From contig JAPLZK010000002.1 in assembly GCA_026395055.1 (NCBI GenBank), positions 56,940 through 120,939 on the forward strand: 64,000 nucleotides of DNA. The letters are read 5' to 3'. This DNA comes from Candidatus Uhrbacteria bacterium (GTDB lineage Bacteria > Patescibacteriota > Patescibacteriia > UBA9934 > GWF2-40-263). Positions 55,426 through 61,007 of this stretch are shown piece after piece. The notes beneath the pieces were generated by a model, which was given only the letters and a program-made list of their open reading frames with translations, had not been told where the DNA came from and ran no database searches. The position numbers and the translations under genes were made by a program. Within the stretch, counting starts at the first letter, position 1. Each line of letters begins with the position of its first letter.

Positions 55426-57924
55426 ATGGCAGAAAAAAAACAACTTCCTGAAGAAGAGGTGCAAGACATCACCGCAAGTGGAATCGGTCGCATTGAGCGC
55501 CGAAACATTGCGGATGAAATGCAAACCGCGTACTTAGATTACGCTATGTCTGTGATTGTCGGACGTGCTCTTCCAGATATTCGTGACGGGTTAAAGCCTG
55601 TTCACCGCCGTATTTTATATTCCATGTGGCAAACAGGGTTGCGCTCAAGTGCAAAATTTAAAAAGTGTGCCTCTGTCGTTGGAGATGTGCTTGGAAAGTA
55701 TCACCCACACGGAGATTCTGCTGTGTATGATTCTCTTGTGCGTATGGCGCAAGATTTTTCCATGCGTTATCCACTCATCCGCGGACAAGGAAACTTCGGT
55801 TCGCTCGATGGAGACCCAGCAGCTGCGTACCGATACACAGAAGCAAAACTCGAAACCATCTCAGAAGAACTTTTGGTTGATATTGAAAAAGAAACCGTCG
55901 ACTTCATTCCAAACTTTGACGGAACACATAAAGAACCAAAAGTATTACCTGCAAAACTTCCAAACCTTCTTATCAATGGAACGGTTGGAATTGCCGTTGG
56001 AATGGCGTCCAACATTCCACCACACAACCTCGGTGAGGTTTGTGATGCTGTGCTCGCTTTGATTAAAGATAAGGACACTTCGATTGAAGATCTGTCCGAA
56101 ATCGTAAAGGGGCCAGATTTTCCAACCGGTGGAATCGCCTACAGTAATGCTGATATTAAAACAGCTCTCGCGACTGGTCGTGGGGGAGTGGTTGTGCGTG
56201 GAAAGACAGATATTGTGGAAGACAAAAAAGGAAACTTCGCCATTATCATCACGGAAATTCCATATCAGGTAAACAAAGCAAACTTGCTTATTCGCATTGC
56301 GCAAAATGTGCGCGATAAAAAGATTGAGGGGATTAAAGATCTTCGTGATGAATCCACTTCAGAGGGTGTACGTGTTGTTGTTGAGCTGAAGAAGGATGCA
56401 TATCCAAAAAAAGTTTTGAATCGCTTGTATCAAACAACGCAGCTTCAAGAATCCACGCACTACAATATGCTCGCGCTTGTTGAAGGTGGAATTTTGCCAC
56501 GCGTACTCAACCTCAAGATGATTCTTGAAGAGTATTTGAAGCATCGCCAAGAAGTGGTAAAGCGTCGAACACAATTTGAGCTCACACGCGCGCTTGATCG
56601 CGCGCACATTCTCGAAGGGTTACGCATCGCGCTCGCGCAGATCGATAAGATCATTGCCTGCATCAAAAAGTCCAAAGATAAAGACGAAGCACGTGTTAAC
56701 TTGATCAAACAATTTAAATTGTCGGAAAGACAAGCTGTCGCAATTTTGGACATGCGTTTGCAACAGCTCGCAAACCTTGAAACATTGCGCATCGAACAAG
56801 AGTACGCAGAAAAGATGGCGCTCATCAAAGAGCTTGAGTCTATTCTCGCAAGCGCAAAAAAGATGATGATGGTGATTGCAGAAGAAGTAGAAAGCTTGAA
56901 ACTCAAGTACGCTTCTCCTCGCCGCACACAAATCATCAAATCGGGAATTAAAGAATTCTCCATTGAAGACGTTGTGCCTGACACAGAGACCGTTGTCATG
57001 ATCACAAAAGCTGGATACATCAAACGTATTGATCCTGATACGTTCCGCACGCAAAAACGTGGCGGAAAAGGTGTTGTCGGTATGGCATCCAAGGAAGAAG
57101 ACGAGGTTGAGCAAGTCTTCTCGACCACGACGCACAAAGATCTTTTGTTCTTCACCACACGCGGTCGCGTGTTCCAATTGAAGGCTTACGATGTCCCCGA
57201 AGCTTCTCGCATTGCGAAAGGCCAAGCGCTCGTGAACTTCCTTCAGCTCGCGCCAGGTGAGTCTGTATCCGCGTCGTTGTCTATGGATGAACTCGCGGAT
57301 TCAAAGTTCTTGCTCATGGTGACAAACAAGGGAACCATCAAGAAAACAGACTTGTCCGAGTACGACTCGGTTCGCAAATCTGGACTCATCGCAATTAAGC
57401 TGAAAGACGGCGATAACTTGCAATGGGTTCGTCCAACATCTGGAAAAGATCAGATCATGCTTGTGACATCTGGCGGACAAGCGGTCCGATTCGAAGAAAA
57501 GGGCGTGCGCCCAATGGGTCGCGTCGCATCTGGAGTTCGAGGAATCAAGCTGAAAGGTGATGATTCTGTGGTCGGAATGGGAATCATTCCAGGCTCATCC
57601 TCGAAAAAGCCGGGTGAGAAGGAAATTCTGGTTGTGATGGAAAACGGATACGGCAAACGCTCGGATCTTATCGAATACAAGGTTCAAGGACGTGGTGGAT
57701 CCGGAATTAAAACCGCAAATATCAGCAAAAAGACAGGAAAAATCGTCGCGGCCCACATTGTAGACACCAAAGACGAGCGCGATATGTTCATTATTTCTGG
57801 AGCGGGTCAAGTTATTCGGTCTTCTCTCAGTTCCGTGTCCGTTCTTGGTCGCGCAACCCAGGGAGTTCGCATCATGCGCTTCAAAAAGCCTGATGACACG
57901 GTTGCAAGTGCAGCCCTCATTTAG
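55426..57924 (+). CDS. gyrA: DNA gyrase subunit A
   Basis: [37 protein letters not shown] (QRDR), AAAYRYTEA (catalytic Tyr) and C-terminal beta-pinwheel repeats. Confidence 0.97.
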
Positions 57925-57937
57925 ACAAAAAGACTGT

Positions 57938-57963
57938 GGTTTTTGCCACAGTCTTTTGATTTC
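57938..57963 (+). repeat. 26-bp direct repeat DR1 (includes half of the gyrA terminator)
   Basis: GGTTTTTGCCACAGTCTTTTGATTTC, identical to 60613-60638. Confidence 0.95.
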
Positions 57964-57975
57964 CCCAATGAATCA

Positions 57976-58004
57976 TTGACATTTTGCGGATTTTATGTTA
58001 TTAT
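57976..58004 (+). promoter_or_regulatory. Sigma70-like promoter of the DGR target gene
   Basis: TTGACA, 17-nt spacer, TATTAT. The 17-bp block GAATCATTGACATTTTG recurs at 63813-63829. Confidence 0.6.
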
Positions 58005-58131
58005 GCCGCGTCATTTGAATCTCGCACAGGGCGATTTTTGGTGACGTGCAGTGTCTACATTTGTTCGCTCCGAGCCTCGCGACGGAATCTCCGTCACAAA
58101 AGCTTGATCGGAACAAAATGCGGAGGAAGTA

Positions 58132-58791
58132 ATGGCAAAGCAGTCCTGGAGAATTAAGCTCGAGCAATGGCTCGCAGCAAATGGTGACGACGGCATGTCC
58201 GGAGTTGTGGATCATCTTGCGATTTTGACTCGCACAACGAGTCTTGTGCGCAAGCCTGGATTCAAAAAAGCTCTGGAGAAATTTTTGGACGAATGGGCCG
58301 GTCTTCCCGAGCAGAAGGAAGATCCGATCCTGCGCCGCCTGTTCGAGGACGAAACAATCACCATCGCCCCGTGCGACGGTTCTCGTTACATCGGCAAGCA
58401 GGAAAAGACGTTCGTCGCCGGCATCGATGGTGATTTCGAGCGATGGAATTTGAACAATCGCGGCAAGTCGACCGATGCGGCGAACGTTTCCGTCTTTGAA
58501 ATGATCAAGGACGCGACGTTCGCACAGATGTTCGGCTCCCTCGGATCGGATCTCGACAAGCTGTGTCTCAGCCAGGATCAGATCATCAAGTTCTGTGAGA
58601 CCAATCGGGACAAACTTCGCAAAGACGGCTACGCCACATTCTTTCTCTTCAAGGAGAATGAAAATTTCTTCGTGGCGGGCGTGGACGTGAGCTCCGATGG
58701 CCTGAGCGTCCTCGTCGGCCCGTTCGAGCACGACGGTGTCTGGTATGCGGGCTGTGTGCATCGTGTCGTCATCCCGCAACTGACCGTTTGA
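58132..58791 (+). CDS. DGR variable target protein (219 aa)
   Basis: The C-terminal 41 codons are the VR. RBS ggagg. Followed by the hairpin+T6 terminator at 58825-58859. Confidence 0.8.
   Translation: MAKQSWRIKLEQWLAANGDDGMSGVVDHLAILTRTTSLVRKPGFKKALEKFLDEWAGLPEQKEDPILRRLFEDETITIAPCDGSRYIGKQEKTFVAGIDGDFERWNLNNRGKSTDAANVSVFEMIKDATFAQMFGSLGSDLDKLCLSQDQIIKFCETNRDKLRKDGYATFFLFKENENFFVAGVDVSSDGLSVLVGPFEHDGVWYAGCVHRVVIPQLTV
58666..58789 (+). repeat. DGR variable repeat (VR)
   Basis: 124-bp match to the TR. By manual alignment there are 16 mismatches, 15 at TR adenines. Confidence 0.9.
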
Positions 58792-59097
58792 TTCTTATCA
58801 TTCGGAAAACCCTTAGACCCTTTGTCCCTCTGACTCTTTGTGAGTTGGAGGGATTTTTTGTATAATCAATTTGCAGTCGTGCGATATTTCATGGTCAAGG
58901 CTGTGGGGTCACGATTGTTTGGAATGGTCATCCAGAATTTTGTCGGCTACGGCTTGCAAAAGTGCGGTGATGATTCTGACAAACAAAAACTTTTCAGTTG
59001 GTGCGATGTGCTTGCGGACTTCTTCGTCCCAAATAAAATTCAGCTAGATTTCTCGTGCACGATAAATCGGCAGTGATCTTGATGGCTCATCGTACAA

Positions 59098-59221
59098 TTC
59101 TTCGTGGCGAACGTGAACGTGAACTCGGATGGCCTGAACGTCAACGTCAACCCGTTCGAGAACGACAATGTCTGGAATGCGGACTGTGTGCATCGTGTCG
59201 TCATCCCGAAACTGACCGTTT
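59098..59221 (+). repeat. DGR template repeat (TR)
   Basis: Contains 7 AAC, 2 AAT, 1 GAC and 1 AAA codon-equivalents whose adenines are substituted in the VR. Followed by the hairpin ctcctcc-gtttgaac-gggaggag. Confidence 0.9.
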
Positions 59222-59569
59222 CTCCTCCGTTTGAACGGGAGGAGTTTTCTTTTCCACGTCTTTTTTCCATCCGCCAAGCATTCTTCCAATTTCATCTAAA
59301 TCAAGGGAAAGTGCCGTATATTTATCGTTCGGGAGACATTTGTTTTCCCACGCGATTTGTAAAAAGAATTTCACGCCATCCAGTTTTGAAATGCAGACGT
59401 TGAGCCGATTCATCTTTTGTTCGCCGGAAAGATATTGCGAAACAAAGATTTGTTCGAGCATTTCCAGAAAGTATCCTTCAATTTTTCCTCCGAGATTATG
59501 GCGCGATGTTTTTGGAAAATCTGCAAGTAGTTTAAACCAAACAGCATAAGCGCTCCTCGTCTTTGTCAT
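59201..59569 (-). CDS. avd: Avd-like accessory variability determinant (four-helix bundle, 122 aa)
   Basis: AYAVWFKLLADFPKTSRHNLGGKIE ... LDEIGRMLGGWKK resembles bAvd/S23-IVS-type four-helix-bundle proteins. Encoded opposite to the TR and RT, and its 3' end overlaps the TR by 21 nt. Confidence 0.75.
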   Translation of the reverse strand: MTKTRSAYAVWFKLLADFPKTSRHNLGGKIEGYFLEMLEQIFVSQYLSGEQKMNRLNVCISKLDGVKFFLQIAWENKCLPNDKYTALSLDLDEIGRMLGGWKKDVEKKTPPVQTEEKRSVSG

Positions 59570-59583
59570 AACCGAAGGAGTTC

Positions 59584-59593
59584 GGGGGGGGGG
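59584..59593. repeat. G10 homopolymer tract
   Basis: ttcGGGGGGGGGGatcc, in the 54-bp gap between the divergent avd and RT starts. Confidence 0.95.
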
Positions 59594-59623
59594 ATCCAAT
59601 CATAGACATTCAATGGTGAAAAT

Positions 59624-60634
59624 ATGAAAAAATTTAAACGCGCTTATCAAGATATCATAACGGTCGATAATTTACTTCACGCATGGGAACAATTTTTACC
59701 GGGCAAGAAGAAGCGGACGGATGTTATTGAATTTCAAAATCGTCTCATGAACAATTTGTTTGATCTGCATCGAGCGCTCGTCGAGAAGACGTTTATACAC
59801 GGAGCCTATCATGCGTTTAATATCTCGGATCCAAAGCCAAGAAATATTCACAAGGCAACTGTTCGTGATCGATTGCTTCATCACCTCATTCATTCAGAGC
59901 TGTATGGATATTTCGATCAGAAGTTTATTTACGATTCTTATTCATGCCGAATCGAGAAGGGGACACATAGGGCCATGAATCGGTTTAGAGAGTTTGGCAG
60001 AATCGTTTCGAAAAATAATACGCGTACTTGTTGGGTTTTGAAATGCGATATTCGAAAATTTTTTGCAAATATTGATCACAACATCTTGAAAAGTATTTTG
60101 GGTAAGCATATCGACGATAAAGACGTGTTGAATTTGCTTAATCATCTTGTCGATAGTTTTTCGACTCCGGGGAAGAAAGATGTCGGACTTCCACTCGGCA
60201 ACCTAACCTCACAGCTTCTGGTGAACATTTACATGAATGAGTTTGATCAGTTTATGAAACGGACGATCAAGACCGAGTATTACATGCGATATGCAGATGA
60301 TTTTGTGATCTTGCACGAGAGTCGAGAGTATTTGAGCGAGATGATTTCAAATATCTCAGAATTCCTTGAGTCACATTTGAAATTATCTTTGCATCCGGAC
60401 AAATTGTTTCTAGAAACGCTCGTCTCCGGAGTTGATTTCCTTGGCTGGGTCCATTTTCCCCACCACCGAGTCTTACGAACAGCCACAAAGAGACGGATGT
60501 TAAGAAATGTTCGGAATTCAGAAGATTTGGCCACGTTTTACTCTTATGAGGGTATGCTAGCTCATGGGAATGGATTCAAATTGATTCGGAAGGCTGAATC
60601 ATCATTTTCAAAGGTTTTTGCCACAGTCTTTTGA
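59624..60634 (+). CDS. DGR-type reverse transcriptase (336 aa)
   Basis: SYSCRIEKGTHRA, LKCDIRKFFANIDH, GLPLGNLTSQLLVNIYMNEFD (DGR signature), YMRYADDFVIL, GVDFLGW. Confidence 0.9.
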   Translation: MKKFKRAYQDIITVDNLLHAWEQFLPGKKKRTDVIEFQNRLMNNLFDLHRALVEKTFIHGAYHAFNISDPKPRNIHKATVRDRLLHHLIHSELYGYFDQKFIYDSYSCRIEKGTHRAMNRFREFGRIVSKNNTRTCWVLKCDIRKFFANIDHNILKSILGKHIDDKDVLNLLNHLVDSFSTPGKKDVGLPLGNLTSQLLVNIYMNEFDQFMKRTIKTEYYMRYADDFVILHESREYLSEMISNISEFLESHLKLSLHPDKLFLETLVSGVDFLGWVHFPHHRVLRTATKRRMLRNVRNSEDLATFYSYEGMLAHGNGFKLIRKAESSFSKVFATVF

Positions 60635-60638
60635 TTTC
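60613..60638 (+). repeat. 26-bp direct repeat DR2
   Basis: Identical to 57938-57963. Supplies the last 7 codons and the stop of the RT ORF. Confidence 0.95.
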
Positions 60639-60667
60639 TTGACGCGACCCTCAAAAAATGGTATAAA
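60639..60667 (+). promoter_or_regulatory. Sigma70-like promoter of rpmF
   Basis: TTGACG, 17-nt spacer, TATAAA. Confidence 0.6.
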
Positions 60668-60773
60668 TGATGTAGAAAGTAGGAAGTAGAAAGCATAAAG
60701 GGATTCGATAATCTCTTTTTTCTTCCCACTTCCCACCTTTCTACTTTCTACTCACCCCTTTCTCCTTACTCCT

Positions 60774-61007
60774 ATGCCAGTACCAGCCCGTAAAAAGTCG
60801 AACGCCTCCGGCAAGCGCCGCCGTTCCCATGATCATCTTACAAAGAAGGTCATGCCAAACTGCCCACAGTGTTCTGCTCCTGTAAAACCACATAACGCTT
60901 GCCTTTCATGCGGTTTTTATGGTGGAAAACAAGTTATTTCTGTTGGAACGTCCACAGTAAAAATTGTAAAATCTGCAGCCAAGAAGGCGCCAAAAAAGAA
61001 AGCTTAA
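60774..61007 (+). CDS. rpmF: 50S ribosomal protein L32 (extended C-terminus)
   Basis: MPVPARKKSNASGKRRRSH...CPQC...CLSCGFY. Confidence 0.9.
   Translation: MPVPARKKSNASGKRRRSHDHLTKKVMPNCPQCSAPVKPHNACLSCGFYGGKQVISVGTSTVKIVKSAAKKAPKKKA

Follow-up and report, generated by a model that had tools for sequence, protein, structure and literature searches.

A complete and probably active B3-type DGR in a Candidatus Uhrbacteria genome, with a candidate hypermutable tract between its avd and reverse transcriptase genes

Diversity-generating retroelements (DGRs) of CPR bacteria are well catalogued. In 90% of them, the template repeat (TR), avd and the reverse transcriptase (RT) gene are arranged as TR-(avd)-RT, an architecture termed B3 (Wu et al., 2018, PMC5758913). 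The same gene order, orientation and CPR host are common to these elements, to DGR clade 2 (Roux et al., 2021, PMC8144416) and to the locus described here. In the DGR of Bordetella phage BPP-1, the order is mtd-avd-TR-brt. DGR reverse transcriptases as a class are defined by the sequence xGxxxSQ in motif 4.

Cassette architecture and target protein

We analyzed a stretch of 64,000 nucleotides (the window) from a Candidatus Uhrbacteria genome. Between gyrA and rpmF, it contains a cassette with the order target, TR, antisense avd, RT:

58132..58791, + strand: target gene, 219 aa; the N-terminus is helical and variable, the C-terminal domain (about 155 aa) conserved
58666..58789, + strand: variable repeat (VR), forming the final 41 codons of the target gene
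59098..59221, + strand: TR, in gapless alignment with the VR
59201..59569, - strand: avd, 122 aa, with its ATG at 59569, divergent from the RT gene and with a tail that runs through a hairpin into the TR
59624..60634, + strand: DGR reverse transcriptase gene, 336 aa, with the last 7 codons and the stop codon in the right copy of a flanking repeat

The sequence observations of a preliminary description of this locus (the VR/TR pair, the GNLTSQ signature, the antisense avd and its overlap with the TR) all proved correct. The VR and TR align over 124 nt with 16 mismatches, 15 of which are at TR adenines. Adenine accounts for 28 of the 124 TR bases, and the binomial probability of at least 15 of 16 mismatches falling on this base is 2.6e-9. 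The mismatches at A are in seven AAC, two AAT, one GAC and one AAA codons, and every changed adenine (15/15) is at codon position 1 or 2. The sixteenth mismatch is a synonymous TCG-to-TCC change. VR/TR homology ends exactly at the repeat boundaries, the last 12 nt, where an IMH/IMH* pair would lie, being identical in both copies before the flanks diverge. No second VR was found in the 64-kb window.

The translated RT contains GNLTSQ as part of LPLGNLTSQ, together with RYADD, an instance of the catalytic YxDD, and matches Pfam RVT_1. Its best solved relative is chain 8ub7_A, a 328-aa reverse transcriptase (E = 1.3e-35), which we take to be the Bordetella bRT from its length and entry series. 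Avd was recognized by the Pfam model bAvd (49.2 bits, cut-off 40, E = 8e-13) and scored 60.8 bits (E = 1e-16) with the NCBIfam model DivGenRetAVD, which is under the curated cut-off of 80. The gene lies on the opposite strand between the TR and the RT gene, and with its stop codon at 59201-59203 it overlaps the TR by 21 nt. At the other end, the mechanically called avd ORF extends to a TTG at 59599.

The layout had initially been regarded as unusual, a claim that the comparison with relatives and with B3 as published by Wu et al. does not support. An antisense avd lies immediately upstream of the RT gene in all 73 RT-related loci with enough upstream DNA, and the TR abuts the avd 3' end in 63/63 loci in which a TR was found. 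The avd stop codon is located inside the post-TR hairpin (32 loci) or inside the TR itself (18 loci) in 50/50 cases, so that with its 21-nt overlap, too, the locus is typical. TR, reverse-strand avd and RT thus follow each other in the window as they do in B3, and we found no difference from CPR B3 DGRs in the features that define the group. As in these elements, the TR adjoins the RT module, the target is devoid of recognizable domains, signal peptide or membrane segment, and the VR is C-terminal. The class of DGR is a known one, and the locus joins the thousands of DGRs already catalogued from CPR bacteria as a further B3-type element. Neither the tract of repeats separating avd from RT, nor the covarying RNA 5' of the TR, nor the direct repeats at the ends of the cassette is mentioned in the B3 and clade 2 papers that we consulted.

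It is practically inconceivable that the antisense avd is an artefact of assembly or annotation, or that the RT stems from a retron or a group II intron. The top NCBIfam model for the RT is indeed a group II intron RT/maturase, but with 140.8 bits against a cut-off of 300, and the locus has an A-specific TR/VR pair, an Avd protein and the GNLTSQ motif. No intron or retron RNA was found with Rfam, which at a permissive threshold returned chance-level matches only in 57800-60900. Furthermore, all 73 loci, taken from independent assemblies, have avd in this orientation.

Compared with the BPP-1 DGR, the locus shares the Avd family, adenine-specific mutagenesis, the VR at the 3' end of the target gene, a stem-loop just 3' of the TR and structured RNA on either side of it. 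It differs in that avd is inverted and placed between TR and RT, in the repeat tract of the avd-RT control region, and in being chromosomal, whereas the BPP-1 element is phage-borne. In sequence, the target resembles neither Mtd nor the other C-type-lectin-fold DGR proteins TvpA (2y3c), archaeal AvpA and Thermus TaqVP.

The target belongs to a very large family that is confined to CPR bacteria. It comprises 2494 cluster representatives, has no Pfam entry, and all of its named matches are from CPR. The family consensus, FFVAxVxVxSDGLxVxVxRFExDxVWxAxxxHRVVVPQLT, is without the usual lectin-type VR motifs. Profile searches of PDB sequences with the target returned nothing relevant, a Foldseek comparison of the target model with the PDB gave nothing significant, and Pfam scans of longer family members provided no functional hint. 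The structure prediction that the preliminary description had suggested yielded weak but repeated C-type-lectin-like matches only. Judging from this model, the variable domain probably adopts a divergent C-type-lectin-like fold. The earlier remark that the target has no recognizable C-type-lectin ending holds at the sequence level, but targets in CPR bacteria are known to be of this kind, their VRs belonging to unknown classes (Wu et al., PMC5758913; see also Roux et al., 2021, PMC8144416).

RNA elements around the template repeat

The non-coding parts of the cassette contain the following elements:

57976..58004, + strand: promoter-like site of the target gene (TTGACA, 17 nt, TATTAT, with TG; 11/12, consensus match only)
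58824..58861, + strand: terminator-like hairpin and T-run after the target gene, 35 nt past the VR end
58838..58866, + strand: promoter-like site upstream of the TR unit (TTGTGA, 17 nt, TATAAT; 10/12, consensus match only)
59007..59089, + strand: structured RNA element upstream of the TR, identified by covariation
59222..59255, + strand: post-TR hairpin directly after the TR (CTCCTCC / GGAGGAG, 59222-59244) and T-run (59245-59255)

Downstream of its promoter-like site, the target gene has a leader of about 125 nt, and the region is 88% identical to its counterpart in the related cassette L001. This relative has also kept the TATAAT of the TR unit and the leader downstream of it.

The structured element upstream of the TR consists of three helices, P1 (59007-59012/59084-59089), P2 (59016-59019/59026-59029) and P3 (59043-59047/59067-59071). 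In the alignment of relatives, 91.7% of the cells were paired, compared with 36-44% in slid controls, and 97 cells carried changes on both sides, compared with 13-38 in the controls. The covariation score was reached by none of 500 shuffles.

The post-TR hairpin is a candidate for an Avd-binding stem-loop, a terminator of the TR RNA, or both. Stem-loops after the TR have been found in 207 of 278 Avd-containing DGRs (Handa et al.). When sequences were folded one by one and compared with shuffles, a comparable hairpin was present in 50/50 related loci, with z < -2 in 46. RNAalifold predicted nothing on a MAFFT alignment of these hairpins, because the arms are out of register. As avd is inverted between TR and RT, the DNA 3' of the TR doubles as coding sequence for the Avd C-terminus, and apparent conservation downstream of the TR is due to the Avd motif MLGGW on the other strand. 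Pairing across the TR of the "cPRT stop duplex" type (Handa et al.) did not exceed that in cross-locus controls (P = 0.38).

The preliminary description had pointed out that a co-transcript of TR and RT would be antisense to avd. This remains true of such a transcript, but the concern is softened by the elements on either side of the TR. With a terminator-like hairpin and T-run after it, as in the related loci, and a promoter-like site before it, the TR RNA may be a transcription unit of its own, with a predicted start near 58873. A search of the + strand from the TR promoter to the beginning of the RT gene detected no canonical promoter for the latter, and the division into transcription units is accordingly tentative.

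On the model of the Bordetella phage DGR, an RNA composed of the conserved structured 5' domain, the TR and the 3' stem-loop would be bound by RT and Avd. Reverse transcription of the TR RNA would proceed with random misincorporation opposite adenines, and the resulting cDNA would replace the VR. Up to about 11 codons could in this way be re-randomized in the C-terminal 41 residues of the 219-aa target. The explanation as a whole, namely a complete CPR-specific B3 DGR with a BPP-1-like mechanism and a proposed role for slippage in a G10 tract (discussed below), is in our judgement very probably right.

Activity in sister lineages and probable insertion of the cassette

Two sister lineages are demonstrably active, with VR diversification at A sites. 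The cassette L001 differs from L007/L087 at 17 positions in 3.5 kb, all of them in the VR and all at TR-adenine sites. Eight contigs with identical RT differ from each other at 21-25 positions, which are confined to the VR apart from changes in the G tract. The target protein of the window was found in no more than two contigs, which are identical in sequence, and activity in this genome is therefore deduced from the state of the cassette and from its relatives. The canonical parts are all present, and the ORFs and the catalytic motifs of the RT are intact, in agreement with the original assessment that the DGR is complete.

A single VR sequence for this genome would also be expected if the DGR were a fossil, with historical VR/TR differences and a target that is no longer diversified here. 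Relics do occur at the same site in relatives: all that is left in L090-L093 is a target with a frameshift, the same in four samples, and L005, which lacks an RT, carries two targets. In the window, however, no ORF is disrupted and no catalytic motif is missing, and the regulatory and RNA elements are 86-88% conserved with L001, which is above the conservation of the RT itself. Moreover, VR turnover is under way in the closest sister cassette, which is laid out identically and shares 82% nucleotide identity. We therefore regard a fossil as quite improbable and a functional DGR as the better description of the locus.

The cassette is bounded by two copies of a direct repeat, neither assigned to a strand:

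57938..57963: left 26-nt direct repeat, GGTTTTTGCCACAGTCTTTTGATTTC, which forms loop and 3' arm in the gyrA terminator hairpin (57928-57957)
60613..60638: right 26-nt direct repeat, with the rpmF promoter region next to it

The two copies are perfect, none would be expected by chance, and there is no further copy in the 64 kb. In L001, the flanking repeat is 41 nt long. Flanking repeats were detected in 4 of 46 independent lineages, with scores of 26-60 compared with a control maximum of 14. Inspection of the neighbours of NusB homologues identified an empty site in the relative L094, which is undisrupted and has a single copy of the repeat. A metagenome scan with the repeat sequence returned occupied sites only. 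Host sequence repeated on either side of the cassette and an empty site with one copy are the pattern of a target-site duplication, and they indicate that target, TR, avd and RT are inserted or deleted together, as a unit. A deletion between the repeats would leave an empty site identical to that of L094. RNA-mediated movement of the whole cassette was considered and deemed unlikely, because the inserted unit carries the target's own promoter.

The repeat is terminator sequence, and L001 has the full 41-nt hairpin at both ends. The second copy might thus be a functional duplication of the gyrA terminator, serving gyrA and RT, rather than a mark of insertion. In the window, however, the right copy is without the 5' arm of the hairpin and hence cannot terminate. 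The flanking repeats of three other lineages, 41-81 nt in length, are not terminator sequence; in L028 they consist of an upstream gene's 3' end and in L009 of promoter-like DNA. The undisrupted site of L094 has just one copy. A duplicated terminator therefore seems rather unlikely to us, and we favor the repeats as a mark of insertion.

The G tract between avd and RT

The two divergent genes avd and RT are separated by 54 nt, which include an uninterrupted run of G:

59584..59593, no strand assigned: G10 homopolymer, candidate hypermutable switch, between the avd ATG (59569) and the RT ATG (59624)

It is the sole repeat of its kind in the 64 kb. A short hairpin (CCGAA-GGAG-TTCGG, 59572-59585) lies next to it; many related loci have a hairpin beside the tract, though no alignable consensus emerged. 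A poly-G or (GA)n tract is present at the equivalent position in 70 of 75 related loci, compared with 0.03 expected from the flanks.

The longest avd ORF reads through the tract as MDPPPR. Upstream starts in frame with avd occur in 16/43 loci, compared with 19 and 16 in the control frames, and as they are no commoner than in other frames, we rejected the tract as avd coding sequence.

Tract length varies in three of four populations of relatives. The alleles are G10/G11 in one population, G8/G9 in another (5 and 4 contigs) and G11/G12 in a third (6 and 2 contigs), whereas the fourth lineage is invariant at G10. The alleles segregate in otherwise identical cassettes.

Contingency loci in divergent promoters include the (TA)n repeat of hifA/hifB in Haemophilus influenzae and poly-G promoter tracts in Neisseria. 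Like hifA/hifB-type loci, tracts of the kind seen in the window are uninterrupted, exceed the slippage threshold, have natural length alleles and are located between two divergent start codons. The window itself contains the slippage-prone repeat, and the repeat-number alleles are those of its relatives. Unlike hifA/hifB-type loci, the tracts have a strong purine-strand bias, and they are candidates for the control of a mutagenesis machine rather than a surface structure. Slippage in the G10 tract would alter the expression of Avd, RT or both, resulting in stochastic switching or tuning of mutagenesis. We propose such a contingency locus tentatively, rating its chances at somewhat below even. 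A search of the accessible literature gave no report of a repeat-controlled DGR switch, though there may be a prior description.

The tract could also be kept for a role of its sequence or structure, for example as a non-B DNA barrier, an insulator between divergent genes or a purine-rich RNA element, with length changes as a neutral by-product. In 67 of 70 loci, the RT strand of the tract consists of purines (G in 43/43 homopolymers, GA or AG in 24/27 dinucleotide tracts), and this bias suggests a strand-specific role rather than pure mutability. Tract lengths of 7 to 42 nt are, in addition, hard to reconcile with a single promoter spacer. However, (G)n, (GA)n, (GT)n and (TC)n all occur at the one position, the tracts are mostly uninterrupted and exceed the usual slippage thresholds, and alleles differing by one unit are found in 3/4 populations in which nearly nothing else varies outside the VR. 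A purely structural role is conceivable, yet we are inclined to doubt it.

Regulation of DGRs in nature has been called "an exciting frontier" (2026 study, PMC12875486). A polymorphic, slippage-prone tract at a fixed position between the mutagenesis genes is a concrete candidate for such regulation. The covarying RNA upstream of the TR and the dual use of the DNA 3' of it, as RNA hairpin and as coding sequence for the Avd C-terminus, constrain models of the CPR ribonucleoprotein. If the contingency reading of the tract is true, a hypermutable sequence would control a targeted hypermutator, and part of a CPR population would freeze a useful variant while the rest continues to diversify.

Components and activity of the retroelement

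The preliminary description of a complete diversity-generating retroelement (DGR) was borne out, every part being intact in the window:

58132-58791, forward strand: target gene, a 219-aa ORF with the variable repeat (VR) as its last 41 codons
58666-58789, forward strand: VR, a 124-nt gapless repeat with the template repeat (TR)
59098-59221, forward strand: TR, the downstream copy of the 124-nt gapless repeat
59201-59569, reverse strand: avd ORF, matching Pfam bAvd above and NCBIfam DivGenRetAVD below the cut-off
59624-60634, forward strand: RT ORF with an RVT_1 match

Gapless alignment of VR and TR reproduced the reported 16 mismatches over 124 nt, 15 of them at TR adenines (P = 2.6e-9, given that adenine makes up 28 of the 124 TR bases). 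The A-site changes fall in 7 AAC, 2 AAT, 1 GAC and 1 AAA codons, all at codon positions 1 or 2, and the sixteenth mismatch is synonymous (TCG-to-TCC), again as described. Similarity is lost abruptly at either repeat end, and no third copy was found within the 64-kb window, even with adenines treated as wildcards. The placement of the VR at the extreme C-terminus of the target and the DGR signature GNLTSQ in the RT (as LGNLTSQ, together with YADD) were also confirmed. The best solved relative of the RT is 8ub7_A, a 328-aa reverse transcriptase (E = 1.3e-35), presumably the enzyme of the Bordetella phage. Target and RT are identical to NCBI proteins of a Candidatus Uhrbacteria genome, which identifies the host as a MAG of that group.

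For the window genome, a single VR sequence is available. The closest sister cassette (locus L001 and its like), which shares site and layout with the window at 82% nucleotide identity, is available from several samples. Comparison of L001 with L007 and with L087/L088 over 3.5 kb revealed substitutions at 17 positions, every one of them within the VR and matching a TR adenine. In a lineage of eight contigs with identical RTs, pairwise comparisons gave 21-25 differences limited to the VR, plus differences in the length of a G tract (G11/G12); one of the eight contigs also carries two substitutions outside the VR. The VR turnover in the sister cassette and the eight-contig lineage indicates that elements of this type are active in nature. 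By sequence, the window DGR is complete and probably active. Locus L002, elsewhere identical to L001 in the cassette, differs by 20 substitutions in a 126-nt RT patch (L002 8625-8750), a sign of either a recombination event between strains or a chimera made in assembly.

The target matched nothing in Pfam or NCBIfam. A word-indexed search returned 163 matches, every named one from CPR bacteria, the group of the host, and an exhaustive profile search extended the family to 2494 cluster representatives (986 below 1e-30), some with two or three copies of the target domain. In two members, P0361 and P0362 (476 and 560 aa), the 155-aa domain occurs three times in tandem, and a Pfam scan outside these copies gave no hint. 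The family consensus of the VR is FFVAxVxVxSDGLxVxVxRFExDxVWxAxxxHRVVVPQLT. An AlphaFold model of the target, built from 61 sequences, was of high confidence, with a pLDDT of 88 overall and about 96 for residues 70-219; a Foldseek search with it gave no significant match. These data agree with the literature, in which most CPR targets have no recognisable domain, new variants of the lectin fold being suspected (Roux et al., 2021, PMC8144416), and in which VR classes of unknown type have been described (Wu et al., PMC5758913). A putative lectin fold is likely for the target. Its predicted leader (58005-58131), long at about 125 nt, shares 88% identity with that of L001 and so exceeds most of the target coding sequence in conservation.

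Layout and RNA elements around the template repeat

The position of avd, antisense between TR and RT, and its overlap with the TR had been considered unusual. RT, Avd and A-biased repeats were located in the 80 genome loci with the closest RT relatives (59-77% identity). An opposite-strand avd directly upstream of the RT was present in each of the 73 loci whose upstream DNA sufficed, and a TR on the RT strand, adjoining the avd 3' end, in all 63 loci with a detected TR/VR pair. This type of arrangement, TR-(avd)-RT, has already been named by Wu et al. (2018, PMC5758913). The 21-nt overlap of avd and TR was confirmed from the minus-strand avd stop codon, and such an overlap is general too: among 50 loci, the avd frame ends within the post-TR hairpin in 32 and within the TR in 18. 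Both points marked as unusual, the layout and the target, are ordinary in CPR bacteria and were published before. The Pfam bAvd match covers residues 13-114 of a 132-aa ORF, and because the Avd domain proper stops short of the post-TR hairpin, the overlap is a read-through tail.

The TR is accompanied by several elements:

58838-58866, forward strand: promoter-like site upstream of the TR
59007-59089, forward strand: covarying three-helix RNA element upstream of the TR (37-locus alignment)
59222-59255, forward strand: hairpin and T-run directly 3' of the TR

From the promoter-like site to the TR, a stretch of 225 nt, identity with L001 is 88%, which equals avd and exceeds the RT (79%). Covariation of the three helices across the 37 loci was strong: 91.7% of cells were paired vs 36-44% with slid partners, 97 cells showed double changes vs 13-38, and none of 500 shuffles reached the covariation score. 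Among the single-stranded segments of the element, the motifs AAUAAAAUACAGC and GGCAGUG..GAUGGC are conserved; Rfam had no match to the element.

A stable hairpin of varying sequence lies directly 3' of the TR in 50 of 50 loci (z < -2 in 46), and its DNA codes on the opposite strand for the conserved Avd end. By eye, GTTTT usually follows; a scripted check found at least four consecutive T's immediately 3' of the hairpin in 34 of the 50. Handa et al. (10.1101/2023.10.23.563531) describe stem-loops that closely follow the TR and putatively bind Avd in 207 of 278 Avd-containing DGRs, CPR included. The window element also looks like an intrinsic terminator; with such an element in place, the TR RNA may be a short transcript unit of its own and not co-transcribed with the RT.

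Cassette boundaries and site history

The entire cassette is enclosed by a perfect 26-nt direct repeat, which is longer (41 nt, full hairpin included) in L001/L007:

57938-57963: left copy, part of the gyrA terminator
60613-60638: right copy, perfect, covering the last seven RT codons and the stop
L001 6790-6830 and 10017-10057: the 41-nt copies in the sister cassette

Flanking repeats of host sequence (26-81 nt) occur in four independent lineages; those of L009, L028 and L059 (41-81 nt) involve unrelated host sequences. In repeat-flanked cassettes the right copy begins at or beside the RT stop codon, which is furnished by the flank in the window, L028 and L059. The RT C-terminus of the window departs from that of L001 past residue 290.

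The site itself, between gyrA and rpmF, has varied contents. It is empty in L094 (7480-7760), where gyrA and a single terminator copy are followed directly by the rpmF promoter; L090-L093 (L090 6620-7680) hold a lone frameshifted target, invariant in four samples; L005 (4860-6830) holds two targets without TR, avd or RT; and L096 (6540-7830) holds an APH/choline-kinase gene. In Uhrbacteria the spacer from gyrA to rpmF is therefore a variable spot, and together with the flanking repeats these contents indicate that DGR and target act jointly as a single insertion/deletion unit.

Two small ORFs separate the RT from the right repeat copy in L001 (9531-10019) and likewise in L007, and are missing from the window; by their sequences we take them to resemble an antitoxin of the AbrB/MazE type (GQVTLP motif) and a toxin of the RelE type (YRVRVGDFRIIF). 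The rpmF (L32) leader (window 60674-60763) contains a 28-nt imperfect inverted repeat, AGAAAGTAGGAAGTAGAAAG... / ...CTTTCTACTTTCTACT, kept in L090 and L005, which possibly forms a leader structure for the ribosomal protein; its Rfam matches, all to microRNAs, were at chance level.

The repeat tract between avd and RT

A G tract lies within the 54 nt that separate the avd and RT start codons. It is the sole G or C run of at least 7 in the 64-kb window, where no dinucleotide repeat of at least 6 units was found:

59584-59593: G10 tract

Of 75 related loci, counted without redundancy, 70 have a simple repeat in this intergenic region. The flanks of these loci (660 kb) contain only four such repeats, so that 0.03 would be expected in the intergenic regions.

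Tract types in the 70 loci
poly-G, 7-13: 43
(GA)n or (AG)n, 6-21 units: 24
(GT)n: 2
(TC)n: 1

The tract generally lies outside the avd ORF, and a TAnnnT element is usually found 3' of it on the RT strand. Its length varies among otherwise identical cassettes in three of the four lineages represented by more than one assembly: G11 in L001 vs G10 in L002, L003 and L007; G8 in five contigs vs G9 in four; and G11 in six vs G12 in two, all further differences being in the VR except for the two substitutions in one contig. The fourth lineage has G10 throughout, with two contigs broken at the tract. Several same-RT contigs (L111-L115) start at, or a few bases from, the G tract, suggesting that assemblies tend to break there.

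The searchable literature, one key paper being outside its reach, held no mention of the tract. It is best read as an element that is prone to slippage and controls Avd and/or RT; given that the RT strand shows a strong purine bias, it may instead have a structural or RNA-level role. This conserved, polymorphic tract is the one feature that could reward experiments.
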